A stretch of 64,000 bases of DNA, taken from NCBI GenBank assembly GCA_963695855.1, contig CAVOHZ010000010.1:1504001-1568000 (forward strand), read 5' to 3'. The DNA is from an uncultured Nitrososphaerales archaeon (GTDB lineage Archaea; Thermoproteota; Nitrososphaeria; Nitrososphaerales; Nitrososphaeraceae). The position numbers were made by a program, and so were the translations under genes. Below the pieces are notes generated by a model. The model ran no database searches. It had not been told where the DNA came from and was given only the letters and a program-made list of their open reading frames with translations. Numbering within the stretch: the stretch's first letter is position 1; the number at the start of each line of letters is the position of its first letter. Below, piece by piece: positions 7,053 to 28,472 of this stretch.

Positions 7053-8651
7053 TTAATAACCCAGATTCTTAAGAATGCCTTCTCGGTCAATATTTCTAAC
7101 ATGAATTTTTCCTGATTTAGAAACATAATCTGGTATTCCTATTCCAGCAGCTAAAATAGGAGTTCTATTTATTGAATGTGGCAGAAAAAAGTTTGTCACT
7201 TCATCATCATAAAAAGTAGAACCAGATGCACCTAATCCTTGTGCATAAGCAGCAAGATATATCTTTCCTAATCGTATTCCACCTTCCAATTGTACGGCTC
7301 TATATCCTCTATTACCTAACTTTTTCAATATTTTATTTATATCAGCCAAAATGAAACAAACAGTACTTGCATCAAAGAGAAGTTTTTGATCTAAACATAG
7401 ATGTTCAGAAGCTGTTCTAAAATCACCAGTTTCAAGTTCATTAAGGGTATTATTAATTTTATCATAGAAATAACTACCCGATTTAATGCCTTCGACAGCA
7501 TTAACAATTAGATAAATATCTATCAAACTATCATCATGTTGAATAAAATCAAATGGAATATTTTTATTTGCAAGGTATAGGATTTTTTCTAGTTGTGATT
7601 GTGTTATTGGTTTCTGAGAAAATTTTCTAGTTGAACCTCTTTGCAAAATCACCTTATATAATGGAGGTCCTGTTTCAAGATTTTCTCTTACAAGACTAAT
7701 TTTATCAGGTTTCTTAGAATATCTTACTGTTTTTAAAATTTCAACCCATTTTTTTACATCATTTTCATATTCTAAATAAGAACCTTCGTGTACCTTCCAT
7801 ATTTGTGGAAAGTTAAGTTCTCCATATCTAGAAATTGGAATGGTATCAAATTTTACATCTAGATTTTCTATATATTTGTTAGAGATTTCTTTTTCCTCTA
7901 TTGTACCTACACCCAATGGAGATAACACAATTGCTGCCTCTTTTCGAGCTGGTAGCGAAATTATTTTGTTGACTAGATCATCTTGAAAACCCACGATGAT
8001 CTCAGTTAATAAAGAATTTGCGTTACACAGAGATAGATAATTGGATATTATTGTTCCAACATCCCAGAACCAATGTCGATATGATCTGTCTTGGTATTTC
8101 CATGAATTTCTCCAAGAAATAGAAGTAAAAATAAGAGTTACAGGAGACGTAATTATTTTTTCATTGTTTCCACAAGCATGATACAGAGTGGATCTATAAT
8201 CACCGCTATGTAATTTGGTTAATGTAAAATCTCCAGGACAAAAATGATATATTCCATCTTCTAGGTCACGTATATGCGTACATGCTAAATAAATTTCAAT
8301 TGGATATAAAGCCCCTGTAGCTGATGCAGATCTCATGTAATAAATTGAATTATTAGTCTTCATTATCCGCGTAATTCCTGCTGAAAGGAATAAAATTTGC
8401 GAAATTCTCATTAAATCTAGTTCATTAGAGGACATATTAGAAAAATTTTGTTCGTTTTGTAAACATGTAATAACGTCATTATCCGCAAGAGGAAAATTGG
8501 ATGGTAAATATAATAAATCTAAATTATTAAAAAATTTAAAGGGTGAAGGTTTATTCTCCCAGTCCAAAAAATGAATGTTTGAATATACAGTAGATGGAGA
8601 ATGTTTCGTAATCTGATGATATTCTTTTGCAATACCGATTTTATTATTCAA
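7053..8651 (-). CDS. SagB/ThcOx-family nitroreductase-like dehydrogenase (two domains)
   Basis: YHQITKH, SATGALYPIEIY, RNSWKY..RSYR, RGSTRKF, RGYR...EGG motifs. Confidence 0.88.
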   Translation of the reverse strand: MNNKIGIAKEYHQITKHSPSTVYSNIHFLDWENKPSPFKFFNNLDLLYLPSNFPLADNDVITCLQNEQNFSNMSSNELDLMRISQILFLSAGITRIMKTNNSIYYMRSASATGALYPIEIYLACTHIRDLEDGIYHFCPGDFTLTKLHSGDYRSTLYHACGNNEKIITSPVTLIFTSISWRNSWKYQDRSYRHWFWDVGTIISNYLSLCNANSLLTEIIVGFQDDLVNKIISLPARKEAAIVLSPLGVGTIEEKEISNKYIENLDVKFDTIPISRYGELNFPQIWKVHEGSYLEYENDVKKWVEILKTVRYSKKPDKISLVRENLETGPPLYKVILQRGSTRKFSQKPITQSQLEKILYLANKNIPFDFIQHDDSLIDIYLIVNAVEGIKSGSYFYDKINNTLNELETGDFRTASEHLCLDQKLLFDASTVCFILADINKILKKLGNRGYRAVQLEGGIRLGKIYLAAYAQGLGASGSTFYDDEVTNFFLPHSINRTPILAAGIGIPDYVSKSGKIHVRNIDREGILKNLGY

Positions 8652-8702: not shown

Positions 8703-9719
8703 TTATTTGAATAACCCACCAATGCCACCAAATATTTGATCTAAAATGTTCTTTCCTTTTTCTTGAGCTCCTTCAGTAACATTCTTTGCTCCTTCACTAA
8801 TTACTTGACCTGCTTGTTCAGCTCCTTCAGTAACATTCTTTGCTCCTTCACTAATTACTTGACCTGCTTGTTCAGCTCCTTCAGTAACATTCTTTGCTCC
8901 TTCACTAATTACTTGACCTGCTTGTTCAGCTCCTTCAGTAACATTCTTTGCTCCTTCACTAATTACTTGACCTGCTTGTTCAGCTCCTTCAGTAACATTC
9001 TTTGCTCCTTCACTAATTACTTGACCTGCTTGTTCAGCTCCTTCAGTAACATTCTTTGCTCCTTCACTAATTACTTGACCTGCTTGTTCAGCTCCTTCAG
9101 TAACATTCTTTGCTCCTTCACTAATTACTTGACCTGCTTGTTCAGCTCCTTGTTCAGCTCCTTCAGTAACATTCTTTGCTCCTTCACTAATTACTTGACC
9201 TGCTTGTTCAGCTCCTTGTTCAGCTCCTTCAGTAACATTCTTTGCTCCTTCACTAATTACTTGACCTGCTTGTTCAGCTCCTTCAGTAACATTCTTTGCT
9301 CCTTCACTAATTACTTGACCTGCTTGTTCAGCTCCTTCAGTAACATTCTTTGCTCCTTCACTAATTACTTGACCTGCTTGTTCAGCTCCTTCAGTAACAT
9401 TCTTTGCTCCTTCACTAATTACTTGACCTGCTTGTTCAGCTCCTTCAGTAACATTCCCCGTTCCTTCAGTAATTATGCTTTCTGCCTGTTGAGCTGCTCC
9501 TGTCGCAGCAGATTGAGCTCCCTTAGTAATTACGCTTTCTGCCTGTTGAGCTGATGACGTTGCATTTTCTACTAAACTTTCAGCTTCATTCTTTATCCCT
9601 AAATTTTTTTCCAGTATTTCATTAGTAGTGTTTTGCGCAAAAGCTATATGAGAAATTGGTGCTACCAATACCGCAAGAGTTACGATCAAAAGTGTTGAAA
9701 ATATAGTTTTATCTTTCAT
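8703..9719 (-). CDS. Secreted low-complexity repeat protein (LEA-like or glycoprotein candidate)
   Basis: Signal peptide ending AFA-Q, 12 x 18-aa repeat NVTEGAEQAGQVISEGAK, amphipathic C-terminal tail. Confidence 0.85.
   Translation of the reverse strand: MKDKTIFSTLLIVTLAVLVAPISHIAFAQNTTNEILEKNLGIKNEAESLVENATSSAQQAESVITKGAQSAATGAAQQAESIITEGTGNVTEGAEQAGQVISEGAKNVTEGAEQAGQVISEGAKNVTEGAEQAGQVISEGAKNVTEGAEQAGQVISEGAKNVTEGAEQGAEQAGQVISEGAKNVTEGAEQGAEQAGQVISEGAKNVTEGAEQAGQVISEGAKNVTEGAEQAGQVISEGAKNVTEGAEQAGQVISEGAKNVTEGAEQAGQVISEGAKNVTEGAEQAGQVISEGAKNVTEGAEQAGQVISEGAKNVTEGAQEKGKNILDQIFGGIGGLFK
8767..9456. repeat. Coding tandem repeat: 12 perfect 54-bp units plus two 12-bp inserts and a partial unit
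   Basis: Unit gctccttcagtaacattctttgctccttcactaattacttgacctgcttgttca. Confidence 0.95.
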
Positions 9720-16290: not shown

Positions 16291-16799
16291 TATTATTTAA
16301 AATATAAATGACATCAGATATCTATCAATCTTGAACTTCTAGAAGAATAAATAACTTCATTATCCCATAAATTATATTTGGTTAAAATCAATTCAATAAA
16401 TTCAAAAATAGAATACAATTGTCTTGAAATGATAAGTGTCGTGCGACTTTGGTAACCTGAATAAATTTTAAATGAGAATTTGCTATTACCAATATATATT
16501 GATTAATTTTAACGAAAAAAGGATTATTGTTGTTTTTTTAACAAATGGTTATTGATCTGTCAGTTTTATGGAAACAATAATGAAGAACACAAATATTACA
16601 TGAACTGTACTATTAGGATCATATTCATATAAATCTTGATTGCATAAGTTTGGCTAATCTTACCTATCAATTATCAATGTAGTTTCATATTTTTTGCATA
16701 AATAGCTTTAACGTTGTATTGTATATCTTGCTACAAACCAACATGAGTTATTAAAGAATTGATGTAGCAAATAAATTCTAGAAAATGTTCTAAAACGTA

Positions 16800-16826
16800 A
16801 GTTTATGACGGAAATTTGTACCCTTA
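16800..16826 (+). repeat. Left terminal imperfect inverted repeat (putative attL arm)
   Basis: agtttatgacggaaatttgtaccctta matches the reverse complement of 28433-28459 at 20/27 positions. Confidence 0.55.
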
Positions 16827-16863
16827 ACGTTGGTAAAAGAGTGATATTAGACAAAAAAAACTA

Positions 16864-16883
16864 AAAAACGTTGAAAAACGTTG
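16864..16883 (+). promoter_or_regulatory. Tandem AAAAACGTTG x2, putative operator
   Basis: 10-bp direct repeat just before TTTAATATTA and the RHH gene; another AACGTTG at 16826. Confidence 0.4.
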
Positions 16884-16910
16884 GTTTAATATTATAGTTC
16901 TGTATTAACA

Positions 16911-17099
16911 ATGTTGATGAGTCTAATAAATCCTACTATAGATTCAAATAAAACTAAAAAAAGGTATTGGCACATTCTTGTGTCCGACGAGAATCGTAAA
17001 AAATTGAAAATGCATGGCATGGCAGGAGATTCCTTCAACGATGTGATATCCAAATTGCTATCTCAAAATAATGTATTGGAGACTGATACTTCTAAATGA
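16911..17099 (+). CDS. Small RHH/antitoxin-like DNA-binding protein
   Basis: ILVSDENRKKLKMHG...SFNDVISKLL strand-helix-helix pattern. Confidence 0.7.
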   Translation: MLMSLINPTIDSNKTKKRYWHILVSDENRKKLKMHGMAGDSFNDVISKLLSQNNVLETDTSK

Positions 17100-17115
17100 T
17101 AATAATTTATAAAAC

Positions 17116-17448
17116 GGACTGGTTGGGCCATTACCCCACAACCAAGTCCTTAAGCGCAAGTCCCTCACGAACTCCACGCAGAGCCACAACAGAATCGCCA
17201 CGCATGGCATCCCTATCAATAGTGAACGACAATGGAAGATAGTAAAAATTCGCTAATAAGTCTTCCGTACTCATTTGTCGGTTACGCACAGAATACGCTT
17301 GCAAAAATTCACAAAATCTCACAAATTTTAACAAATTTTAACGCTAGCATCCCCTCCGTCGTCGTTTGTTGCGGTTTTAAGTGTTTTCCCGTGACAAACG
17401 ACAAAAAAATGAGTGAGGTACATTCGACATATTATCTGGCGGAGGGTG
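17116..17448 (+). ncRNA. Candidate structured leader RNA of the replication operon
   Basis: Three stem-loop domains with several G-U pairs on the + strand; the outer stem covers a GGAGGGTG SD-like site. Confidence 0.5.
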
Positions 17449-17455
17449 TAACGAT

Positions 17456-17674
17456 TTGACTAGAACTAGAAGAAAAAAGGCCGTATCTATAAAAAATAAA
17501 AATATCGATAGCATTCCAAATGATAAAAAGTTTACCTGGGCGTGGGAAACCAACAGAAAAACTATTGTTGCCAGGTCAAAGTGTCCTTGCTGGGTATGTC
17601 TGGATAGCGGGATCAAATACAACTATGAAGTTTCATCTGGTAACAAACCGTTCGAAGGAGTGTTTTTCATATGA
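17456..17674 (+). CDS. Small basic Cys-rich protein
   Basis: CPCWVC motif, SD-like GGAGGGTG upstream, ATGA overlap with the next gene. Confidence 0.6.
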   Translation: MTRTRRKKAVSIKNKNIDSIPNDKKFTWAWETNRKTIVARSKCPCWVCLDSGIKYNYEVSSGNKPFEGVFFI

Positions 17675-19632
17675 CTGCTGCTTCAGAAGAAAATAACAAT
17701 AACGCTAGAGAATTAAAGCAAAGTCCAGAAGTCCAAAAAAGCGAACTGATTAAAGAAGCCTATTACTACCCAGATAATAATAGAGTAAAAATATCACTTA
17801 ATGGAAAGATAGACGCCGACATTGTATTTACACTGGTTATAGATGATTGGACACGCAACATAAAGATAGTAATGGACCAGGCCCAGGCATATGGGTACAC
17901 GGATAAGGCACACAGATCAATCTTTTACAGATTCATAAATGATAATGAGGACATTTTAACATCTAGTAATAATAAGGCTAAAGAAAAGCAGACACAACAG
18001 CAAGAAGAAGATGAGGAACAAAAAAAACAACTCATTCCAACCCTCAAATACTCGCAAATGGGAAAAGGTGACCTGTATGAATCCGTATTCATCGGAGATT
18101 TCCCGGCATACATAAAATATAATAGGAGCACAGGAACATTTGAAAGATATGATAAGATTGAAGAAGCAATCAGAATCCTAAGACCTCCAGCAATAGAAGA
18201 GTGTCCACACCTACCTTATGAATTTGATAGTCTGGATCAGATTAATGGTATTGCCAAGTTTATTGAAGATAACAACATAGACCGAGATTATTTGTACTAT
18301 ACATGTTACAAAATAGTCTCCAAATATAACAACCAATTACCACACAAATTAAAATTAATAACAATAAACATAATCGCCTCACACTTTCAGGATATGTTCT
18401 CAACAACGCACTACCTTTATCTGGTTGGTGGTAATGGAAGCGGTAAAAGTTCTATTGCAGAGACACTTAGAGGACTTGCTTATAGGGCCGCAGTAATGAC
18501 GGATCCAAGTGCACCCAACTTATTCAGATTGTTGGGAATGGTGGAGTCTATGTAGTGTACCATGGTACTGGAAGAGGCCGACAAAATAGACAAGTCCACA
18601 GATTTAATGGCAATTTTGAAGACAGGTTTTGCATTTGGTGGGACTACTCCCAAAGTCAATCCCTACACAAACCTATCTGAACGATTCTTTACATACTGTC
18701 CTAAAATAATAGTGTCGGAAAGGTCATTAAATCAATCAATTGCAAAAGGTGTTAATTCGAGAATCTTTTCTATCAACTGTTTCAAGGGAAGCATAAAACA
18801 TGATATCCTAGAAATCCTAAATCCTACTAATACAGGTGGACCAGAGAACAAAAGGCTGCTGCAAGAGATTATGAACTTTCGAAAGTTGTTGCTGGTTTAC
18901 AGATTGATGCACTTCAAGGATATGATTCCAGACTTAGATATAGGTGTAGAAGGTAGGGATAGACAACTTGTAAAATACTGTATACAACTCTTTCATGGGT
19001 GCAAATGTCAGGATGAAGTAATTAAAACCGTTCAAAAATTCTTGGATACCAAGAACAATAAAAAACAAGCATCAATTGAATCCGTCTTACTACCGCTAAT
19101 TGATAAACTAATCGAGACCAAGAAAACGAATCAAGTTTCATCTTTAGACTTCTGGAAAGCAGTAATTAACGAGATTCCAGGACTACCAGACCTGCATAAA
19201 CCTAATGAATTTCATACAGACGATTACGGGACATTATACAGAACAACGATATCAGGTGTGGTTTGTGATTGCTTTGGTGCAAGTATAAAGCATGGCGATA
19301 AAGGAAACATCTTGGTATTTGACCGTACCGTAATTAAGGAACTGGTAAAGTCGGATATAGAGAATGATAAAACCAGAATAGTCGTTAACGAAATACCTCC
19401 TGGTCAATCAGTAGTGGAAGAAGAATATGAAGAATATGAAGATGACGAGTACGATGAACCTGAAGGCCTGAATAGTCTGAAGGCATCTGGGGAAGGGGGT
19501 ACCCCTGATTTGGAAAAAAATGACGAGGGAGCCGAAGAGCAGGAGGAGACAGAATCAGAGCCACTAGAACCAAATGATACATATTACCAGTTTGGGAAGA
19601 AAGGCCAATGGCGTGAGGGTATTCCACCTTGA
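17671..19632 (+). pseudogene. P-loop replication ATPase/helicase (DUF3631-like) with an in-frame TAG at 18553-18555
   Basis: ORFs 17671-18555 and 18562-19632 are in the same frame; Walker A GGNGSGKS before the stop, Walker B VLEEAD just after. Confidence 0.8.
19460..19499 (+). repeat. Iteron-like CTGAAGG array plus G-tract (inverted partner at 20034-20073)
   Basis: 32/40 match to the reverse complement of 20034-20073. Confidence 0.7.
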
Positions 19633-19994
19633 TAAATCCTACATTAACGCTAACACCCAAGCAAAAGAAAGAGTTGATGGCAGGGGAAAGGGAAGCAGGA
19701 GCACCATCCTTTTTTAGTTACGGTTATCTTGATACTGAGAATAGACAAAAGATTCTTGAATACCTGAATGAAGGTAAAAGATTGAGGTGTCATCATCAAG
19801 ATTGTCAGAGTTTCAATAGTGAGTTCATAACCCTTTATGATTATAATAGACACTGTCATAGCAATCATCCTAGACAACCGCTACATCCATCACTACAGTA
19901 TATCGAAGACTTGACTACAACATATTTTATTGCTGTAAATGAAAAAGCCTGGCGTAAATCACGACTGGTACCTAGGGGTAATCCGTGGGAATGA
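19629..19994 (+). CDS. C2H2-type Zn-finger protein
   Basis: CHHQDC...HCHSNH; TTGA overlap with the ATPase stop codon. Confidence 0.6.
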   Translation: MINPTLTLTPKQKKELMAGEREAGAPSFFSYGYLDTENRQKILEYLNEGKRLRCHHQDCQSFNSEFITLYDYNRHCHSNHPRQPLHPSLQYIEDLTTTYFIAVNEKAWRKSRLVPRGNPWE

Positions 19995-20033
19995 CTTCAA
20001 CAGTAGAGCAAAAAAGTTCTAAAAACACCTACC

Positions 20034-20073
20034 CCCCCTACCCTAGGAGCCTTCAGGCCCTTCATGCCTTCAG
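20034..20073 (-). repeat. Iteron-like CTGAAGG array plus G-tract, inverted copy
   Basis: Reverse complement reads ctgaaggcatgaagggcctgaaggctcctagggtaggggg. Confidence 0.7.
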
Positions 20074-20252
20074 CCTTAGAGATCCAGAACGACCTAGACT
20101 TTCTTTTAAGACACTTCTCAAATCCGTTATTTCCAAGAACCATAATGACACCAAAGGTAAAGCAGAAGGAAGTATATTCAAAGGAACAGGCACCAGTATT
20201 TTACAAAGAGGTTAAGAGGAAGATAAAAAATAATTATGATGTTGTCGTCTAG
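20064..20252 (+). pseudogene. Truncated, diverged copy of the primase N-terminus
   Basis: EIQNDLDFLLRHFSNPLFPRTI versus EIQAGLDFLLSHFSSPLFPRTI in the next ORF. Confidence 0.7.
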
Positions 20253-21357
20253 TCAACAGGAACGGCAGAAACAAGAAGAAGAAGAGATACAGGCAGGCCT
20301 GGACTTCTTACTTTCCCACTTTTCCAGTCCACTGTTCCCCAGAACAATATCAACACAGAAAACCGAAGATAGCCAGATACCTGTAAACAGTATGGAAGAG
20401 GCATTAACTTATTACAGAAAATCAGAATTCAAAGATTGCAAGATTAATGCCTTTTACTATTCGAAATTGGAAGACACAACAATAGGAGGTTTATTCTGGC
20501 ATCCAGATTTAATATTCATTGATTTAGATTTACAGGATTTTAAGAGTGAAAAGGCTTTAAAGTTTGCACTTGCCAAGACTTTGAACAATATTGCCGATGA
20601 ATTGGGCAGTAATTCCGCAGTTCCTACAGTACTTCACAGCGGGGGAGGATACCACGTCATACAACCGGTAGACTGTCCGGTACCGTTAGAGAGTATCCAG
20701 AATGTAAAAGAGTTCATGGAGATACCGAACCCTTCAGAAATATTTTTGAGGTTTGCCAAAGACTTTCTATCGAATGGAAAGGCAGACAAGAAGAATAATC
20801 CTTCCTTCAAATCCTGCATGTTAAGGATTCCAGGTTCCATTAATTCCAGACGTAATGGCAAGAACGTTAGAATTATTCAACGTTGGAACCGATACAGGCC
20901 ACGAATAACGAAAGAGTTGATAATAGAGTTCCAGGGCTGGTTGATACAGAAGAAGATACACAAAAGGATAGAACAGGAAAAAATAGATAGGGAGAGACAA
21001 GCAAGAAGGAAGCAATTACCTGCAGGTTACAATATCAATTATTACGAGTGGATAGAAAAATTATTAGATACAGGAATAGAAGACTGCAGGAAAACATGTG
21101 TAGGTTTGATTCTAGCACCCTATCTTATTCATGTGAAGGGATTATCGTATGAGACTTCCAGACAAATAATCAAAAACTGGTTACAGAAATGTGACTCCCT
21201 TAGGAAGTTAGATAGAGGTTTTGATTCCAGAATAAGAGACGCTTTAAGAAGTTCACAAAGGAAACAGATTCCCCCAATGTCCAGACAGAAAATTAAATTG
21301 GATAATGCTTATGAAACACTTCATAATATATTATCTAATAAGGGAATTAACGGTTAG
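20236..21357 (+). CDS. Archaeo-eukaryotic primase fused to a PriX-like domain
   Basis: AEP motifs IFIDLD, SGGGYH, LRIPGSIN; C-terminal WIEKLL...DCRK...YLIHVKGLS resembles PriX. Confidence 0.82.
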   Translation: MMLSSSQQERQKQEEEEIQAGLDFLLSHFSSPLFPRTISTQKTEDSQIPVNSMEEALTYYRKSEFKDCKINAFYYSKLEDTTIGGLFWHPDLIFIDLDLQDFKSEKALKFALAKTLNNIADELGSNSAVPTVLHSGGGYHVIQPVDCPVPLESIQNVKEFMEIPNPSEIFLRFAKDFLSNGKADKKNNPSFKSCMLRIPGSINSRRNGKNVRIIQRWNRYRPRITKELIIEFQGWLIQKKIHKRIEQEKIDRERQARRKQLPAGYNINYYEWIEKLLDTGIEDCRKTCVGLILAPYLIHVKGLSYETSRQIIKNWLQKCDSLRKLDRGFDSRIRDALRSSQRKQIPPMSRQKIKLDNAYETLHNILSNKGING

Positions 21358-21416
21358 ATTAGGTTATGATGATGGTACTAGTTAATTTGTATAGATATGA
21401 GGTGTCATTAAAGTAA

Positions 21417-21872
21417 TTGGGTGGAAGTTTCAAAAATAGAGAGAGTCAGATTTTAATGCCTTTGGTCGCAGACTGTGTTAACTATGGCCTTTCAGAACCG
21501 GAAGCATTAGCGTATATCAAAACAAGGTTAGGAAGGACAATATCTCCAGGAACTTACTATAATCGCAAAAAAAAGGTAGATAGTGGAGAGTACGCCAATC
21601 AATGGATGTCCTACTACACCAGAGTAGGTTTTTTGGTTACCCACAAAAAGATTATTGATGTAATTGAAACCATTCAAAAGGACACATTAAGAGATTACCT
21701 TATCGAAAACAGTAAACCACACGAACAGAAAAATATGGATTTAATCCAGAAGTTAAGATATGAGATTAGAGAGAATTCAAAGTTAATTCAAGATTTAAGT
21801 CTAGGAAGTCCAATCATTGCACAGATTAAAGCGAAGATAGAACATGCTGAAAGTATTTCAACAGGCAAGTAA
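21417..21872 (+). CDS. HTH/coiled-coil protein, putative terminase small subunit
   Basis: HTH-like N-terminus, helical C-terminus, overlaps the TerL start; assignment is positional. Confidence 0.5.
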   Translation: MGGSFKNRESQILMPLVADCVNYGLSEPEALAYIKTRLGRTISPGTYYNRKKKVDSGEYANQWMSYYTRVGFLVTHKKIIDVIETIQKDTLRDYLIENSKPHEQKNMDLIQKLRYEIRENSKLIQDLSLGSPIIAQIKAKIEHAESISTGK

Positions 21873-23283
21873 CGTTCTATCCCTGGACCCTTCTGAAATC
21901 TCAAATTCTAAATTTGAGATATTCAAGGATAAACCCTTTTGGATATGGGACGTAACAGAGCATCACGACGAACAATTGGCAACTATGGGTAATTGCTGCT
22001 TTAATCACGTGTTGGGCCTACCTAAAAAGGATGGAATTAGTAAAGAACTATTTGATTATGAGAAAGTAGTTCTCGACCTGTTACAGTATGATAAATGTCT
22101 GTGGATTCTCAAGAGTACGGGTTTAGGAATTACCGAACTATTCCTAAGATATATGGCCTGGTTATGTCTACGTAATAATGATTATCAAGGTTCTCAATTC
22201 GTAATAGTTACAGGACCTAATTGGCACTTGTCCAAGAAGTTAATAACAAGAATGAAAAAGTTGTTTGAACCACTTGGAATTTACTTTGATAGTAAGGAGA
22301 CGTTACTGAATCTTAATAACGTGGCTATCGAATCATTTCCAAGTCATCACGTAGACTCTTTTAGATCATTGGACAATCCCAAGTTTATTCTGTTGGATGA
22401 ATGTGACTTCTTTTCTAAAGGTCAGCAGGAAGATGTAAGGGCCGTAGCAGAGAGGTACATAGCCAAATCAAACCCCTACATAGTTTTGGTTAGTACGCCT
22501 AATCAACCTGGGGGTCTAATGGAATCAATAGAGAGGGAAGAGGAAGATGGTACTTGCCTTTATAAGAGAATTAAACTAGATTACAGATATGGACTTGCTA
22601 AAATATATTCAACGGAAGATATTGAGAAGGCCAAGCAGTCCCCGTCATTTGATAGAGAATACGACCTAAAGTATCTGGGTAAGATTGGGAACGTGTTTTC
22701 ACTAACGGATATTGATAAAGCCGTCGAGTTGGGAATCAAGTATCAAGACTTACCTATCAATCATGGCTGTCTTCACCCCGTAGGCATTGATCCAGGCTTT
22801 AGTTCGTCGGTTACAGCCATAACCGTTTGTGAGATAGATTTAGAGAACCAGGTAGTAAGGGTCATACTATCGGAAGAACATGATAAGGCAAGTCCTTCAG
22901 TCGTGGCGGACAGAATATTTCAAATACATACACAGATACCCAACTGCCTGTTTTTCGTAGATTCTGCCAATAGAGGTTTCACCAACGAATTAAAATCCAG
23001 GTTCGGGGAATCTTTAACATGGGAAAGATCCGAAGACGTATCAATTTATGATAATTATATTATTCCTATTTCCTTTCAAAAAAATCACAAATCAATGTTA
23101 GAATGGACATATAATCTTCTATCAAAGAAGAAGATTGCAATAGATCCCAAGTACCAGAAACTGATACTATCCTTAAAATCTGCGTACGGTACCGAGTTCG
23201 ATCTTGACAAGAATATCACCATATACTCAGATTTTTTAGACTCCTTACGTTTATCTTTAAGAGGTGTGATACTGAGGGAGTGA
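21844..23283 (+). CDS. terL: Terminase large subunit-like ATPase-nuclease
   Basis: Deviant Walker A KSTGLGIT, Walker B ILLDE, coupling motif STP, F.REY, RNase H-fold GIDPG / FVDSA / DFLDS. Confidence 0.85.
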   Translation: MLKVFQQASNVLSLDPSEISNSKFEIFKDKPFWIWDVTEHHDEQLATMGNCCFNHVLGLPKKDGISKELFDYEKVVLDLLQYDKCLWILKSTGLGITELFLRYMAWLCLRNNDYQGSQFVIVTGPNWHLSKKLITRMKKLFEPLGIYFDSKETLLNLNNVAIESFPSHHVDSFRSLDNPKFILLDECDFFSKGQQEDVRAVAERYIAKSNPYIVLVSTPNQPGGLMESIEREEEDGTCLYKRIKLDYRYGLAKIYSTEDIEKAKQSPSFDREYDLKYLGKIGNVFSLTDIDKAVELGIKYQDLPINHGCLHPVGIDPGFSSSVTAITVCEIDLENQVVRVILSEEHDKASPSVVADRIFQIHTQIPNCLFFVDSANRGFTNELKSRFGESLTWERSEDVSIYDNYIIPISFQKNHKSMLEWTYNLLSKKKIAIDPKYQKLILSLKSAYGTEFDLDKNITIYSDFLDSLRLSLRGVILRE

Positions 23284-23302
23284 TAAAGAGGTGGATAGAT
23301 AA

Positions 23303-23536
23303 ATGCCAGGAAATTGTAAGGAAAGTGAAACAAGTTGGTGTCCTCGTTGTCTAGAAGCAGGAATTCATGTTCAATTAATTCCCCGTCTATACAGAAAAGA
23401 GGAATTAATTAATGGCGAATTACCACAGGACTCTTATGACTGGTTACAGTGTTGGGATTGCGGCCATATCATGCATGATTGGAGAACAATAGAAGATATA
23501 TGCCTGGAATTAAAAAGAGAAGAGATTATTTTGTAA
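23303..23536 (+). CDS. Zn-ribbon protein (paralog A)
   Basis: CPRC...CWDCGH; GAGGTG SD upstream. Confidence 0.7.
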   Translation: MPGNCKESETSWCPRCLEAGIHVQLIPRLYRKEELINGELPQDSYDWLQCWDCGHIMHDWRTIEDICLELKREEIIL

Positions 23537-23964
23537 CTACTGCAGGAAATAATTATTATGATAATAATAATGACGACGATTACGACAAAGATACAAAAAA
23601 GTATTGTGTGACTTGTGAAGGTTATGGTTTTAGTGTCGAATTGGGTCCACGTATCTATACACCTGAAGAAAGGATAAACGGTAAGAATCCAGCGGATGCG
23701 GATAACTGGTTAATGTGTGAGAACGGTCATATAGTTGCACAGGTCCACGCTAAACAGACAACGACAATAGTAGGGATAAAGGAAGTTCATGATTCTATAT
23801 ATGACAGTAAAAAAGTGGTAGTTAAACACTTCATAAAACCACGTAGAAAGTTAAATGTAAACAGAGGTGTAATAAGAACAAACGCGGAAGATGATCCAGA
23901 TATACAAAGACATTTAGAAGGAGGAGCCCGATTAATCAGTTATGTATCTTCAGAGGACATATAA
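23479..23964 (+). CDS. Zn-ribbon protein (paralog B)
   Basis: CVTC...CENGH; aligns with paralog A; start uncertain. Confidence 0.65.
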   Translation: MENNRRYMPGIKKRRDYFVTTAGNNYYDNNNDDDYDKDTKKYCVTCEGYGFSVELGPRIYTPEERINGKNPADADNWLMCENGHIVAQVHAKQTTTIVGIKEVHDSIYDSKKVVVKHFIKPRRKLNVNRGVIRTNAEDDPDIQRHLEGGARLISYVSSEDI

Positions 23965-24030
23965 TAAACAAAATAAGTTCTGGAATTTTTTTAAGAAAAT
24001 TATTTGATAATAAACTGAATACTATTATTT

Positions 24031-24297
24031 CTAATCATGTTGTTGTTTGAAATGAAGACGTTTCTTATAAAGAGCAATTTCTAATATCATATTTCTTGTG
24101 AATTGACTGTATTCTGAATTTAATCTTCTTATTATTTGTTGAACATTATTTACTGTATATTCCATATTTTTTGCTAAGAGATCACAAAAAATCTTTTCCA
24201 CTTTTTCTTCGTCTTGTGGATGAATCATATGTTTATTTCTTACTGCTTGGTCAAGATTTTTCAAAATAGTTTCATAGTCGTCTTCGGTAATACTCAT
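24031..24297 (-). CDS. Hypothetical helical protein
   Basis: 88-aa ORF with ATG start. Confidence 0.55.
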   Translation of the reverse strand: MSITEDDYETILKNLDQAVRNKHMIHPQDEEKVEKIFCDLLAKNMEYTVNNVQQIIRRLNSEYSQFTRNMILEIALYKKRLHFKQQHD

Positions 24298-24358
24298 TTT
24301 TTAAATATATTTCGGAATCTGTAATAAATTTTTTTTGATATAATATTCTTTGAAGTTT

Positions 24359-24523
24359 TTATTGATTTCTTCTTTTCTTAAGATAATCATCCAGGGCTTC
24401 AGTAATTAGTTCAGTTAGGGTTTTTTTATCATCTATTGCTAAATGTTTCAAGTCCCTTAACATCTGATGGGGTAATCTAATCGTGGTCTTACTGATCGCC
24501 TCCTCCTCTTCTTCTTCCTTCAT
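24359..24523 (-). CDS. Ribbon-helix-helix (CopG/ParG-like) regulator, 54 aa, missing from the ORF track
   Basis: Manual translation MKEEEEEEAISKTTIRLPHQMLRDLKHLAIDDKKTLTELITEALDDYLKKRRNQ. Confidence 0.8.
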   Translation of the reverse strand: MKEEEEEEAISKTTIRLPHQMLRDLKHLAIDDKKTLTELITEALDDYLKKRRNQ

Positions 24524-24655
24524 TTAATAGTTGTTGGCTTGTTGCCATATAATTTACTATTCATTTCTATGCTTATAATGATTACCATCTTGTTGTCAAA
24601 ACAGATAATCATATATATTTAAATATGCTCATGAGTATAGCGATTTAGTATTATT

Positions 24656-25330
24656 ATGGCTAAAGGAAGAGTATCAGTAGAACAAAAACCAAAGAAGATC
24701 GCAAAGATTTTAGAGGGATATAATAACAAGACGGAGGAAAGTTACAAGAAAAATGAATTAGAAGTACCAGAACGCCTAGACTTTCAGATAAAGCATTTTT
24801 TGATGCTTGTTGATGCTGAGAAATACCCTGTTGAAAAAGAAGTTACAAGAGTTATCCGATTAAAGGCAATAGACTACAATTCAAAGAGAAGAGAAATGAA
24901 AGAGTTTCTAGTCTGGTATGAGAACTGGTTTGGTAAAGACTGGCAAGGAAGGAAAGTCCCGCCGGTTACTGATCATGTAGAAGGCAGGTACTACGAGCAG
25001 GATTTAGAACCTGTCGTTGAAAGACACCAGATAACTGGTTATGATAGAACAGGACAGCATGAAGTTCACTACGTACCTTTTAGCAAGAAAGCAGTAGACG
25101 AAATAATTGCTAAATCAACTTATGACAATAAAAGCCAAATCAAATTCGTAGTAAAAACTCCAACAATCAGAAATGATTCATTTACTTATGAACAATTTGT
25201 TAATACGCCATGGGATGAATGCATTACAATGATAATGACCAATGGAGGACCACCACGATACGAATACGATAAGAAGCAGCAAGAGCAGAAAGACGCCAAA
25301 ACACTAGAACAGAATAAGCAGTACTCTTGA
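24656..25330 (+). CDS. Hypothetical protein of the element
   Basis: 224-aa ORF, TATA-like TTTAAATA upstream, T-rich tract downstream. Confidence 0.75.
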   Translation: MAKGRVSVEQKPKKIAKILEGYNNKTEESYKKNELEVPERLDFQIKHFLMLVDAEKYPVEKEVTRVIRLKAIDYNSKRREMKEFLVWYENWFGKDWQGRKVPPVTDHVEGRYYEQDLEPVVERHQITGYDRTGQHEVHYVPFSKKAVDEIIAKSTYDNKSQIKFVVKTPTIRNDSFTYEQFVNTPWDECITMIMTNGGPPRYEYDKKQQEQKDAKTLEQNKQYS

Positions 25331-25483
25331 TTCTTATTTTTATTTATTTTTGAATGAACTAGATTTTGAAAAATAATCTAACGAGAAAATAAAAGAAGAT
25401 TAGAATAAAAGTATATTTAAAAAATTATATTGCATATAAAAAAATATTAAATAAAATATTAAATATTTAATAAAATTGAAATT

Positions 25484-26083
25484 TTATTTAAGATCTGATA
25501 GGTCATTTTTGATTTTGATCATATCAATACACTTTCTAACCACAATATCAGAGAAGTAATCTTCTTCTATCGCTTTATCATTAAAATGACCTGTTTTATC
25601 TAATTCGGCGAAAACTTCCAACAATAATTTTCTGCCTAAATCAGTATATTTATAGATCGCTTTATCATTAAAATGACCTGTTTTATCTAATTCGGCGAAA
25701 ACTTCCAACAATAATTTTCTGCCTAAATCAGTATATTTATAGATCGCTTTATCATTAAAATGACCTGTTTTATCTAATTCGGCGAAAACTTCCAACAATA
25801 ATTTTCTGCCTAAATCAGTATATTTATAGAATTTACCCCTACCTTCTTTCGCATCCTTCAGAGAAGCCGCTATACAATACCAACGACATTTTTCATCAAT
25901 GTATATTCTTCTACTACCTTCCTTACCGCCCTGTTCGAATACAAATTCTATTATCTTATTACACTTAGGGTCCAGAATTATTACCTGACCTTCTTCATCC
26001 AGAATTACCTGACCTTCTTCATACAGAATTACCTTACCTTCTTCATCGTTATTGTTATTATTGTCGTCGTCTCTAGTAGTCAT
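25484..26083 (-). CDS. Hypothetical protein with internal repeats
   Basis: 3 x 29-aa exact repeat and 3 x EEG(K/Q)VI repeat; coupled to the upstream RHH gene by an ATGA overlap. Confidence 0.6.
   Translation of the reverse strand: MTTRDDDNNNNNDEEGKVILYEEGQVILDEEGQVIILDPKCNKIIEFVFEQGGKEGSRRIYIDEKCRWYCIAASLKDAKEGRGKFYKYTDLGRKLLLEVFAELDKTGHFNDKAIYKYTDLGRKLLLEVFAELDKTGHFNDKAIYKYTDLGRKLLLEVFAELDKTGHFNDKAIEEDYFSDIVVRKCIDMIKIKNDLSDLK
25569..25829. repeat. Perfect 87-bp tandem triplication
   Basis: Units start at 25569, 25656 and 25743. Confidence 0.95.
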
Positions 26084-26226
26084 TTCTGTGATTTCCCCTT
26101 ACTATCATAATAATCCAGCAGTCTTCTAATAATATCGTCATAAGTTTCTGTCTTCTTTCCCTTATCGGTTAGTCTTTCGTAAGTATCATCTTTTACTTTA
26201 ATCAACTTAGTCAACTGAGTACTCAT
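26080..26226 (-). CDS. Small RHH/antitoxin-like DNA-binding protein
   Basis: MSTQLTKLIKVKDDTYERL...ETYDDIIRRLL; same pattern as 16911-17099; start moved to 26226. Confidence 0.75.
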   Translation of the reverse strand: MSTQLTKLIKVKDDTYERLTDKGKKTETYDDIIRRLLDYYDSKGKSQK

Positions 26227-26227
26227 A

Positions 26228-26312
26228 GGTAAACTATAAGGGTAAATAAATATAAGTCTACCCATTAAACCCAATAAACCTAGTTAACTATATATTAGTA
26301 AACTGGGTTTAC
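26228..26312. promoter_or_regulatory. Divergent promoter region with TAAAC repeats and palindromes
   Basis: GTAAAC-tgg-GTTTAC (26298-26312), TAGTTAACTA (26281-26290), further TAAAC copies. Confidence 0.45.
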
Positions 26313-26319
26313 CACACGC

Positions 26320-26664
26320 ATGAAACAAACAGTTTCTAAAATAGTAAAACAAGAAAAGCGCAATAGGAGAGAGGGAGTAGGCCGGTGTATGGCCATATCC
26401 CAAAAAATCTACCGTCTCCAAAACAGTGAAACGTTCTACGTTGAGTCGGAGAGCAGTACTTCACGTTATTATTTCGTGAGATATAACCCCTCTGTTTTCG
26501 AGTGGTGTTCCTGCAAAGATTATGAATCGAACCGTTCAGAAAAATGTAAACATCTGTACGCGGTAGAATACGGAATAAGGTTCAATACAATACAGGAAGT
26601 AGAGCATTTCTCACAGGAAGCAAGAAAGGGCCTATCATATCAGGACGACGAATATTCTTTTTAA
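26320..26664 (+). CDS. SWIM-type Zn-finger protein
   Basis: WCSCKDY...KCKHLYAV (CxC...CxH). Confidence 0.85.
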   Translation: MKQTVSKIVKQEKRNRREGVGRCMAISQKIYRLQNSETFYVESESSTSRYYFVRYNPSVFEWCSCKDYESNRSEKCKHLYAVEYGIRFNTIQEVEHFSQEARKGLSYQDDEYSF

Positions 26665-26688
26665 CTGGAGAGGAGATGATAAAAATGA

Positions 26689-26982
26689 GTGATAGAAGTC
26701 GGGCAATGTTTGAATTGTGGACATGAATTCCTACAGCATCCAGGCGGGCAATGCTATCTTTGCGACTGCGTAAAATGGGAATTGAAGCAACAGCAGCAGT
26801 ATAAGCAGGAAATAAAAGACATTCAGAAAATATATGAATCCCTAAATTTCTATTATATGAAACTTGTATCAAACCAATCAGAAGATTCAAAATATCAAAT
26901 GATACTCAAAGATTTAGAAGACATGAAAGACAGACTCTATGCGTTGAGACTGCATATAGAGGAATATTTCCAGAACCAATAA
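26689..26982 (+). CDS. Zn-finger plus coiled-coil protein
   Basis: CLNCGHEFLQH...CYLCDC followed by a helical tail. Confidence 0.55.
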   Translation: MIEVGQCLNCGHEFLQHPGGQCYLCDCVKWELKQQQQYKQEIKDIQKIYESLNFYYMKLVSNQSEDSKYQMILKDLEDMKDRLYALRLHIEEYFQNQ

Positions 26983-26998
26983 AGAAAGTAATAATTAT

Positions 26999-28406
26999 TC
27001 ATTTTTTCCCTAATGTAAATTTTCTTTTCTGTCTTTCTAATATCTTTTTTTCTCGTGTTTCTCGTTTCTTATCAGAAATTGGTTCCTCTTTGTTGACGGG
27101 GGAAGTAGTGACTCCTTCGTCATGATAGAATTCCATTGCTTCTTTGGGAGGAATATACATCCCCATCTTTTCAAAATCTTTTACAAGGAACTTCTTCTGA
27201 TAGTCCATCTTCATGCCCTGGAATTTTTGCATGGATTGTATAATGTATTGAACCTGAGTCTGAAGGGTTGCAATCTGGCTATCTCTCTCGATAATTTGGT
27301 TCTGTAGTTGGTAATCCTTAACCGATACCTCTTTTTTCAGTTCGGTGTTTTCAAGTTTAACCTTGTTCTCTTCATTTATCGTTAATGGTTCTATAACCTT
27401 CACATATTCCGCCAGTAGTTTGCTATCGTCATCCTTTCCTGTCTTGAAGTAATGCCTGTCCAAACCCATGCCCGCTTTATGTCCCATAAAATATTCTTTT
27501 ATCGTCTGTTTAACATCATGCCAGATACATGCATTATCAAAAATCGTTCTAAAGACATGCGCACGGGGCCTCTGTTTCCTAACCCTTCCACTCTCGGAAT
27601 GACTCTTACTCTCTATCTTTGTCTTGGTTTCTAGGTGTGCGTCATATCTCAGACGTTCCAGCATTTTTGCAATTGTTTTAGGTGTGTAAAAACCCTTATG
27701 TTTGAATTTACGGATACTTTCTGTCTTATGTGTCATGAATGGTGAATCTGGTGTCAGTGTTTCACCGTTCTTTTCTCTATCTTCCTGATACTCCTTTATG
27801 ACTTGCGCACATTCAGGAGTACAGAACACTTCATACCTTGCGTTTATATCGTAACTGTAAGGTGTAAACTTGTAAAGTTTGTATTCTTCTATATACTTTG
27901 TATCTCCAATACGCAATTCTGCAAGTGCGGTAACCCTCATTCCTGTAGTTAGCAAGGTAAGCAATGCAACCTTTTCCGTCAAGTCGGCATGGGACAGCAT
28001 TGATTTTATCTCTTCATTTTCATAGGGTTTCTTATCAACTTGCAGTCTAGCCTTGCCTTTTATTCTTGATAATTCCTTCCAGTTTGGTATATCCCTCCGA
28101 TTCATGTCATAAAAAAATTTGATTGCTGACATTGTAAGGTTCATATAAAAATTTGATTGCTGACATTGTAAGGTTCATATCCGAATACGAGACGTTGCTG
28201 GCCTTCCTGCGATTCATATAATTGCTTATTGCATTGAACAAGTCGTCCCCTTCAAGTTCCAACAACTGTTCATATCCATCAAATTTAAGGAATTTTAGGA
28301 AGCCTTTGAGGTGATAACTGTATGTTAACCTTGTTTCATCACTCTGACATGCCTTCTCAAAGTTCTCAAAAGGCGTGTATATTGGTGTGTAAGACGCTTT
28401 TTTCAA
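26999..28406 (-). pseudogene. Tyrosine recombinase/integrase, frameshifted by a 34-bp duplication (457 aa if repaired)
   Basis: TTGMR, HVFR, MGH and RHY catalytic motifs in 26999-28144; N-terminal part in 28107-28406. Confidence 0.88.
28113..28180. repeat. Perfect 34-bp tandem duplication inside the integrase
   Basis: aaaaatttgattgctgacattgtaaggttcatat at 28113-28146 and 28147-28180. Confidence 0.95.
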
Positions 28407-28432
28407 CCATTTTCCATGCGGATTCCTTTAAT

Positions 28433-28472
28433 TTAAGGTACAACTTCACTTCATAAATTATAGATTATGACG
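28433..28472. repeat. Right terminal repeat / putative attR core
   Basis: cttcataa-(8 bp)-ttatgacg inverted arms; inner arm matches the left end in inverted orientation. Confidence 0.55.

Follow-up and report, generated by a model that had tools for sequence, protein, structure and literature searches.

The 64,000-nucleotide (nt) stretch of DNA analysed in this study, called the window throughout, belongs to an uncultured Nitrososphaerales archaeon and contains, at positions 16787-28471, an island in which a tyrosine integrase, an archaeo-eukaryotic primase (AEP) fused to a PriX domain, a P-loop ATPase and an intact terminase large subunit (TerL) are encoded together (Table 1). Integrative elements of 11-14 kb in Nitrososphaeraceae make up a family, of which this island is an inactivated and chimeric copy; the existence of such a family, equipped with a terminase and devoid of capsid genes, is well supported by the comparisons reported here. 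As a first-pass annotation of this DNA had described, the island is richer in guanine and cytosine (GC) than its surroundings; the GC fraction is 0.362 for 16805-28457 and 0.309 for the remaining window, and, taken kilobase by kilobase, it lies at 0.35-0.40 over 17-24 kb and 26-29 kb, whereas most of the flanking kilobases have 0.25-0.33. The gene order proposed in the same annotation agrees with the Pfam, PHROG and NCBIfam domain matches across the island. No tRNA gene was found within the 64-kb window.

Terminase block and its distribution

The TerL protein matched phrog_2 over residues 69-421 and is 43% identical to the TerL of Nitrososphaera phage Pro-Nvie1. Nine members of the TerL family that are 41-74% identical show no variation at the residues D185/E186, D316, D373 and D463/D466; we take D185/E186 to be the Walker B motif and D316, D373 and D463/D466 to be the nuclease residues. 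Both parts of a terminase, an N-terminal ATPase and the acidic residues of a C-terminal RNase-H-like nuclease, are present. The ratio of nonsynonymous to synonymous substitution rates (dN/dS), taken where dS is unsaturated, is 0.18 for TerL at a dS of 0.64 and 0.17 at a dS of 0.28 for o224, a 224-residue protein encoded further downstream, and both proteins are under purifying selection.

The 151-residue protein encoded directly before TerL is a candidate terminase small subunit (TerS) by its position adjoining TerL. Its homologues are present directly upstream of TerL in at least six capsid-less copies of the element and in three true proviruses (L050, L051 and L055). Neither the protein nor its profile had a match in Pfam, PHROG or PDB. 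An alternative upstream family shows weak similarity to helix-turn-helix (HTH) proteins of the LuxR/GerE type, and hhalign gave a probability of 3% for a profile link between this family and the 151-residue one. The HTH protein that had been proposed at 21417-21872 finds no family support, either in Pfam or in the comparison of its profile with PDB and PHROG. The two zinc-ribbon genes of the block are paralogous and follow TerL in the window, in the sister element described below, in G041, in G275 and in L099. The 161-residue zinc-ribbon protein had no family match in Pfam, PHROG and NCBIfam, and no known defence family was matched by the proteins of the block in PADLOC.

TerL was found at 12 loci in this genome of 3.55 Mb, four of them full-length, one a fused variant and seven broken. 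All 12 are located on the contig that carries the window (C10, 1.8 of the 3.55 Mb), where several of them are clustered at 1.47-1.53 Mb and 1.70-1.81 Mb, and the other ten contigs have none. An open reading frame (ORF) of 828 residues at L065:7548-10034 (C10:478547-481033) contains the ATPase half of TerL only (PHROG residues 66-344), fused to about 480 residues without a match. TerL matches were obtained for 49 of the 301 genomes sampled across the order; within the host's own family, 42 of 73 genomes had one. Two of the genomes counted in the TerL and portal tallies (G257 and G271) are unpublished, and no claim at the sequence level depends on them.

The complete arrangement of TerL, zinc ribbon and o224 recurs at no fewer than 11 distinct loci, of which this genome has three, G041 and G275 two each and G200 one, while three are on further contigs. 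At these loci an integrase or cargo genes come next, no more than a few kb away. These loci span two genera (g1 and g6), and their TerLs are only 41-61% identical. The same packaging block is paired with differing replication genes, namely the AEP-PriX primase and ATPase in the window and a 792-residue D5_N/DUF5906 protein in G041, and the cargo is also varied, with a ParB-methyltransferase and a metallophosphatase among it.

An ammonia-oxidising archaeal host, as had been suggested for the island, agrees with the Nitrososphaeraceae titles of the relatives and with Pro-Nvie1 being the best phage match. Among the matches listed, the contigs of genomes with o224 are titled Nitrososphaeraceae or Nitrososphaerales, with one Brocadia exception. 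This is a 2.7-kb contig (L103, PHFX01000287.1) from a metagenome-assembled genome bin of Candidatus Brocadia, in which TerL is 61% and o224 47% identical to those of the window; the Brocadia assignment is probably a binning error and does not point to a bacterial host. A DUF1326 protein (9e-54) is encoded downstream of o224 in one capsid-less copy (L060:7304-8116) and between TerL and portal in the true proviruses L050, L051 and L055, and this gene is thus common to both kinds.

Absence of capsid and portal genes

None of the island ORFs had a Pfam or PHROG match to the families of capsid, portal, protease, tail or conjugation proteins, in keeping with what had been noticed at first, and no unassigned ORF longer than 224 residues is left in the element. 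The genome itself is 99.9% complete. A portal was not found in the element or the genome by tblastn, by our own profile or by PF04860 and PF05133, and the same was the case for an HK97-fold major capsid protein (MCP) searched by tblastn, our own profile and PF05065; the Pfam families Phage_capsid, Phage_portal and SPP1_portal had no match in this genome. Comparison of 20 Pro-Nvie1 proteins with the genome by tblastn returned TerL and one unrelated match on contig C3 only. Of nine Pro-Nvie1-type profiles (portal, MCP, tail-tube and six others), eight had no match in the genome, and the ninth, p10, gave one weak match (E 0.014) on C3.

The same pattern was seen outside this genome. A portal was detected in 2 of the 29 TerL-bearing genomes searched with the portal profile, and a Pro-Nvie1-type portal or MCP at none of the 11 block loci; at these loci, the close homologues do not carry portal and capsid genes after terL, the presence of which had been named beforehand as a result that would speak against a satellite. 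True Pro-Nvie1-type proviruses were recognised at six loci of other genomes (L044, L046, L047, L050, L051 and L055), and the zinc-ribbon proteins and o224 are absent from those examined.

A TerL tree of 34 rows is divided into 17 and 17 by one branch with SH-aLRT support of 100. On one side are 15 portal- or MCP-linked TerLs together with two of unknown context, and on the other are eight o224-linked TerLs together with nine without a detected portal. A careful tree of 23 rows gave a branch support of 99/99. The trees are unrooted, and the long-branch rows L052, L054 and L056 were dropped from the 34-row tree. Large ORFs near the unclassified TerLs in L039, L040 and L043 had no PHROG match. 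Taken from sequence comparison, these results suggest that the family is capsid-less by descent and not by recent deletion.

The hallmark protein o224

A profile search recovered relatives of o224 in 395 representative clusters at E<=1e-3, and in 66 clusters at E<=1e-30. The AlphaFold model built from 76 sequences (pLDDT 94.1, pTM 0.85) has five long antiparallel strands with helices flanking them; an earlier fold from 7 sequences (pLDDT 55) was discarded. No credible match to the model was obtained by Foldseek against PDB and BFVD, or by VIA-align against 48,161 chains (best Z 3.0). The Atlas gave no usable match for o224, and Pfam gave nothing on the 76 relatives except one stray SHOCT match. 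Since the fold searches returned no credible match, o224 cannot be recognised as an HK97 capsid or as a portal protein, and a missing structural match by itself excludes no family. As the sole sizeable conserved unknown of the island, o224 was also the ORF on which a concealed capsid protein, raised at the outset as a possibility, could be looked for, and no match to an HK97 or portal fold was found. The predicted complex of TerL with o224 scored 0.00, which carries no weight either way. Three copies in this genome (E, I and K) have TerL and lack o224.

Junctions, sister element and inversion

The ends of the element were defined by comparison with a sister element at C10:1488297-1501710, which lies 2.3 kb to the left of the window in the opposite orientation; when flanking direct repeats were sought within the window alone, only chance-level 11-12-mers were obtained. 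The core at the left junction (GTTCTAAAACGTAAGTTT) is identical in 18 of 18 positions to the integrase-side junction of the sister element (C10:1488297-1488314), and the integrase-side junction of the window matches the left junction of the sister element in 13 of 14 positions, homology with the sister element stopping at 28457. A near-identical core adjoins MoaA in G140. Both ends, reported earlier as present, do exist, but they come from different elements and do not form a matched pair. The left terminal motif GAAATTTGTACC may be the core-binding site of the integrase. The whole-contig elements L049 and L054 have no terminal overlap, and no clear att repeat was found for the G041 element.

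The window and the sister element are 45-90% identical outside one nearly perfect tract of 733 nt, in which terL's 3' end and the first of the zinc-ribbon genes are contained. By its sequence, this tract appears to be a scar of recombination or gene conversion. The predicted ancestral, un-inverted arrangement is present on one contig of G140, whose host genes are 96% identical, in the order helicase, 317-residue gene, element, core and MoaA. The primase of the G140 element is 93.7% identical in nucleotides to the window copy and 68% to the sister copy, whereas its integrase is 92% identical to the sister copy and 65% to the window copy. The junction matches, the 733-nt tract and the G140 arrangement therefore indicate that inverted sibling elements have recombined; about 19 kb between the siblings appears to have been inverted, and each element would now have the integrase half of the other.

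The orthologous element of G140 (L067, G140:C26, 3913-11850) is without the left end, the ribbon-helix-helix (RHH) gene and the whole TerS-TerL-zinc ribbon-o224 block. An insert in it at 8060-8636 is a repeat with about 30 copies in the genome of the window, and the copies of this repeat type overlap a family of 224-331-residue ORFs (cluster c5) that has no Pfam match.

Damage to this copy

The window copy is dead in three ways, by a stop codon in the ATPase gene, by a frameshift in the integrase gene and by its unmatched ends. The ATPase gene has TAG at 18553-18555, whereas the corresponding codon is CAG and CAA in two diverged sister copies; because these are Gln codons, the TAG is a plain nonsense mutation. 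A conserved stop-codon read-through in the ATPase gene was also considered, and was ruled out by the same Gln codons. A stretch of 34 nt in the integrase gene is duplicated in tandem (28107-28140 and 28141-28174, one mismatch), and this interrupts the gene. When one of the duplicate copies is skipped, a single open frame of 457 residues is obtained, colinear over residues 1-399 with the intact 443-residue integrase of the sister element; the frame is thus broken here and intact in the sister copy. The tyrosine recombinase domains were recognised, besides the PHROG match, by PF02899 above its cut-off and by PF00589 below it. The earlier remark that this copy is grounded by a nonsense codon and a frameshift was right, and the damage is worse than it claimed, as the mismatched ends have to be added.

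Replication genes and other features of the window

The PriX domain of the primase was detected by PF18689 (1.8e-13, 51 bits against a cut-off of 25) and by NF033412 (7.5e-20, 71.2 bits against a cut-off of 50). Residues 1-270, the part of the AEP catalytic domain, had no Pfam or NCBIfam match, and the motifs DLD, SGGGYH and RIPGS, read by eye, are presumably the AEP motifs (DxD, sGxGxH and RxPGS-like). A duplicate of the primase N-terminus (residues 17-61, 56% identity) forms a separate 62-residue ORF just upstream of the primase gene. The ATPase gave only P-loop-level matches in Pfam, and likewise in PADLOC; its look-alikes in the Atlas are phage hypothetical proteins, some of them with DUF3631, and it adjoins the primase in four copies. 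No family match was obtained for o121 in Pfam, PHROG and NCBIfam. The iteron-like inverted repeats described in the spacer before the primase were not borne out, as a single 16-nt inverted pair (88%) was seen and the spacer also carries the primase duplicate. The proposed structured leader has a fold z-score of -3.06 against shuffles (17100-17460) and no Rfam match.

The G041 element starts with a homologue of the 62-residue RHH-like protein, and the SWIM protein is recurrent beside the integrases of the family. The cassette at 25384-26140 is 93-97.5% identical to four other genomic copies (C10 at about 322k, 1296k and 1780k; C8 at about 217k), and the neighbouring genes are 66-80% identical. 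Its 87-nt repeat is present three times in the 199-residue ORF, and the lesser ORF lengths in other copies (170 and 162 residues) suggest fewer units. From its sequence, the cassette has the appearance of a module that has spread or undergone conversion recently.

Some repeats were observed outside the island. The segment 30373-30500, upstream of a CDC48 gene, belongs to a repeat of about 110-130 nt with at least 25 genomic copies at 70-85% identity, resembling a miniature inverted-repeat transposable element. A scan for clustered regularly interspaced short palindromic repeats (CRISPR) reported a 22-mer present 12 times at a spacing of 50-95 nt in 8765-9434, which is probably a repetitive coding region and not a CRISPR. 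The genome has CRISPR arrays of two repeat types, at C8:550855-551615, C8:583941-584156, C10:1185516-1186325 and C8:198146-198403, and one of the spacers aligns over 37 nt (92%) with C3:303179-303213 in the genome itself.

Table 1. Features of the island in window coordinates.
Feature	Position	Strand	Basis or remark
Left junction, 18-nt direct-repeat core GTTCTAAAACGTAAGTTT; putative attL of ancestral element 1	16787..16804		
Left terminal motif GAAATTTGTACC, inverted relative to right-end GGTACAA	16811..16822		Common to window and sister elements
Small RHH-like protein, 62 aa	16911..17099	+	VapB_antitox E 0.0016, below cut-off
GC-rich non-coding or short-ORF spacer (the earlier 'leader'), 570 nt	17100..17670	+	Fold z-score
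P-loop ATPase, about 650 aa, pseudogene	17671..19632	+	In-frame TAG
o121, conserved 121-aa protein	19629..19994	+	87% identity in sister element
Partial duplicate of primase N-terminus	20079..20207	+	tblastn
AEP-type primase fused to PriX domain	20236..21357	+	PF18689, NF033412
TerS candidate, 151 aa, overlaps terL start	21417..21872	+	Position only
TerL, 479 aa, intact	21844..23283	+	phrog_2 1.5e-18
733-nt tract, 1 mismatch to sister element	22811..23543		Flanks 45-88% identical
Zinc-ribbon protein, 77 aa	23303..23536	+	CxxC...CxxC; paralogue of next gene
Zinc-ribbon protein, 161 aa	23479..23964	+	Kept after TerL in family
o88, 88-aa ORF, this copy only	24031..24297	-	
o224, hallmark 224-aa protein of terminase block	24656..25330	+	Profile search, AF2 model
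Cassette, 199-aa ORF with 3 perfect 87-nt tandem repeats	25384..26140	-	
RHH protein (DUF7557 / VapB-like)	26080..26274	-	PF24434 4.3e-8, above cut-off
SWIM zinc-finger protein	26320..26664	+	PF04434 19.7 bits vs cut-off 19.6
o97, Cys-rich 97-aa ORF	26689..26982	+	Homology found solely at nucleotide level in G140
Tyrosine integrase, frameshifted	26999..28406	-	phrog_216 2e-7; SAM-like N-terminal domain
Right terminal motif GGTACAACTTC and direct-repeat core TTATAGATTATGAC; putative attR of ancestral element 2	28437..28471		

Comparison with known systems

NitKor-E1 of Ca. Nitrosopumilus koreensis AR1, described before, is likewise integrated in a thaumarchaeal genome; it has TerS, TerL, a tyrosine integrase and small VapB-like proteins but no other Caudovirales gene, and parts of the paper on it (PMC6563490) call the role of its terminase enigmatic and give five TerL hits in the thaumarchaeal genomes searched. 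In comparison to NitKor-E1, which those parts present as a single case and probable relic, the elements in our study form a multi-copy family over several genera, with a TerL clade of their own, selected genes, the zinc ribbon-o224 accessory genes and a primase-ATPase replicon; the two have been compared by description only.

Among the bacterial satellites, the phage-inducible chromosomal islands that form capsids (cf-PICIs) and the Streptomyces satellites MulchRoom and MiniFlayer are likewise integrative and have their own TerS and TerL, as set out in sections of PMC10690885. Whereas these also encode MCP, portal, protease and connectors and borrow tails only, the present family has none of those genes. 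With its 11.7 kb, integrase, regulators and own primase and ATPase, the window element resembles the classical PICIs, the Staphylococcus aureus pathogenicity islands (SaPIs) and P4, described in the same sections as capsid-free elements of 10-15 kb with an integrase, regulators, their own primase or replicase and a packaging-redirection module. On the other hand, these depend on the TerL of the helper and have no more than TerS, Rpp or a cos site of their own, and a complete TerL is encoded here. No satellite family of PHROG or Pfam was matched by the island ORFs, and a sequence relation to PICIs, SaPIs or P4 was thus not seen.

Pro-Nvie1 (FR725450.1) has the closest characterised TerL and the same host family, and its relatives have a gene homologous to the one in the TerS position. 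In viruses of the Pro-Nvie1 type, however, portal, protease-MCP, tail tube, tape measure and baseplate genes follow; these are absent here, and the TerLs fall on opposite sides of the tree. The pSSVx-like and SRCE elements of spindle viruses and the putative Asgard satellite NMV2S resemble the family in being small archaeal replicons thought to be carried in helper particles, but they are plasmid-derived, have no terminase attributed to them in the portions of the two sources that concern them, and among them NMV2S alone is tied to a head-tailed helper (10.1101/2025.02.15.638363, 10.64898/2026.08.12.739948). Our literature search (supplements excepted) did not turn up any account of a TerS/TerL family without capsid genes in Nitrososphaeraceae. 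Satellite candidates for ammonia oxidisers were also not found in this search, and those for archaea overall are few and plasmid-like.

Satellite interpretation and its alternatives

At the level of the family, we favour a satellite of a head-tailed archaeal virus as helper, with a confidence that approaches but does not exceed an even chance. The fuller proposal is slightly more tentative, and according to it the family may be a large and long-lived satellite lineage of Nitrososphaeraceae, with a complete TerS/TerL, o224 and zinc ribbons, that loads the procapsids of its helper by a packaging strategy undescribed in bacteria. A working member would have three modules. The tyrosine integrase and the small RHH and SWIM proteins would serve in integration, excision and control; the AEP-PriX primase and the ATPase of about 650 residues, replaced elsewhere by a D5-like primase-helicase, would provide its own replication; and the TerS-position protein, intact TerL, one or two zinc ribbons and o224 would make up the packaging module. 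As a fourth feature, it would have no capsid, portal or tail genes. Such an element would excise and replicate, and its own TerS and TerL would then recognise and cut the element DNA and pump it into the procapsids of a co-infecting head-tailed virus of the Pro-Nvie1 kind, with the zinc-ribbon proteins and o224 as possible accessory or interference factors. A helper of this kind is plausible because TerL is 43% identical to that of Pro-Nvie1 and homologues of the TerS-position protein lie upstream of provirus TerLs. The first-pass annotation had put forward an archaeal satellite and had named two findings that would speak against it, capsid and portal genes after terL in close homologues and a capsid protein among the unknown ORFs, and neither of them appeared; the packaging in helper capsids, the identities of TerS and of the helper and the roles of o224 and the zinc ribbons are parts of the scheme that we infer.

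Several observations weigh against the satellite interpretation. A direct sign of packaging or mobility was not seen, and the analysis turned up neither a helper nor a virion-derived contig, a circle or a pac/cos site; no circular junction was observed, and the whole-contig element L048 is without terminal overlap. Scanning of IMG/VR with o224 found no relative, and none of the 26 IMG/VR relatives of TerL has o224 or the zinc ribbons, 22 of them being ordinary viruses with a portal or MCP. A helper provirus was not detectable in this genome by tblastn, profiles and Pfam, and none of its 36 CRISPR spacers matches any of the element or virus loci compared. The portal and MCP searches consisted of the profiles of one virus type and three Pfam families, and a capsid system that is very divergent or novel could escape them. 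The TerS identity was without sequence or profile support, and most of the copies in this genome are decayed. The Introduction of PMC10690885 lists no satellite class that has TerL but lacks capsid and portal; the TerL of this family would therefore need to dock on a foreign portal.

A role of the terminase in processing of the element's own DNA or in conflict with viruses, for instance in concatemer resolution, non-capsid transfer or interference with the packaging of an infecting virus, would make this an integrative plasmid-like element and not a satellite, and we consider it unlikely though the best placed of the alternatives. The full replication and integration kit and the varied cargo would suit such an element, as would the failure to find a helper or virion-derived sequence, and the 828-residue copy (C10:479984), with the ATPase half of TerL fused to an unrelated C-terminus, hints at functional drift. 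Against this, terminase complexes are stated in parts of Krupovic et al. 2019 (PMC6563490) not to have been found in non-viral mobile elements, the ATPase and nuclease residues and the TerS-position partner are conserved as in packaging enzymes, and no protein of the block matches a PADLOC defence family.

An origin of the island as the relic of a head-tailed provirus that has lost its morphogenetic genes by deletion, as NitKor-E1 was read, is improbable and already disfavoured. TerL is clearly of viral descent, the window copy is visibly decaying, 7 of the 12 TerL loci of the genome are fragments, and the G140 element without its terminase block shows that loss of a whole module occurs in the family. 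However, the capsid-free order is repeated at 11 loci in g1 and g6 genomes with TerLs only 41-61% identical, the o224-linked TerLs stand apart from all portal-linked ones, TerL and o224 are under purifying selection, and the true proviruses examined have neither the zinc-ribbon proteins nor o224. Independent deletions would not yield this pattern; at most, it could stem from a single loss in the distant past, after which the lineage thrived for long without a capsid, and this is in effect the satellite interpretation.

A complete small virus, with a shell and portal of unrecognised proteins and o224 as a capsid protein of new fold, is just as improbable, for although o224 is a beta-rich, selected, confidently modelled and structurally unmatched hallmark of an abundant family (395 clusters), no portal-sized ORF is left unassigned in the 11.7 kb, o224 is absent from the IMG/VR contigs scanned, the copies E, I and K have TerL without it, and we know of no TerL-type motors except alongside a portal and an HK97-fold capsid.

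Significance

Our study provides, at this locus, a clean worked example of two sibling elements that appear to have exchanged halves via inversion, and it puts forward o224 as a new fold with a link to DNA packaging. Satellites shape the dynamics between phages and hosts in bacteria. If the satellite interpretation is true, the TerL matches that inflate the counts of 'proviruses' in Nitrososphaeraceae genomes would be explained, and a mechanistic question would arise as to how a foreign TerL engages the portal of the helper. Found in over half of the Nitrososphaeraceae genomes sampled, the family would then represent a hidden layer in the virus-host ecology of soil nitrification.

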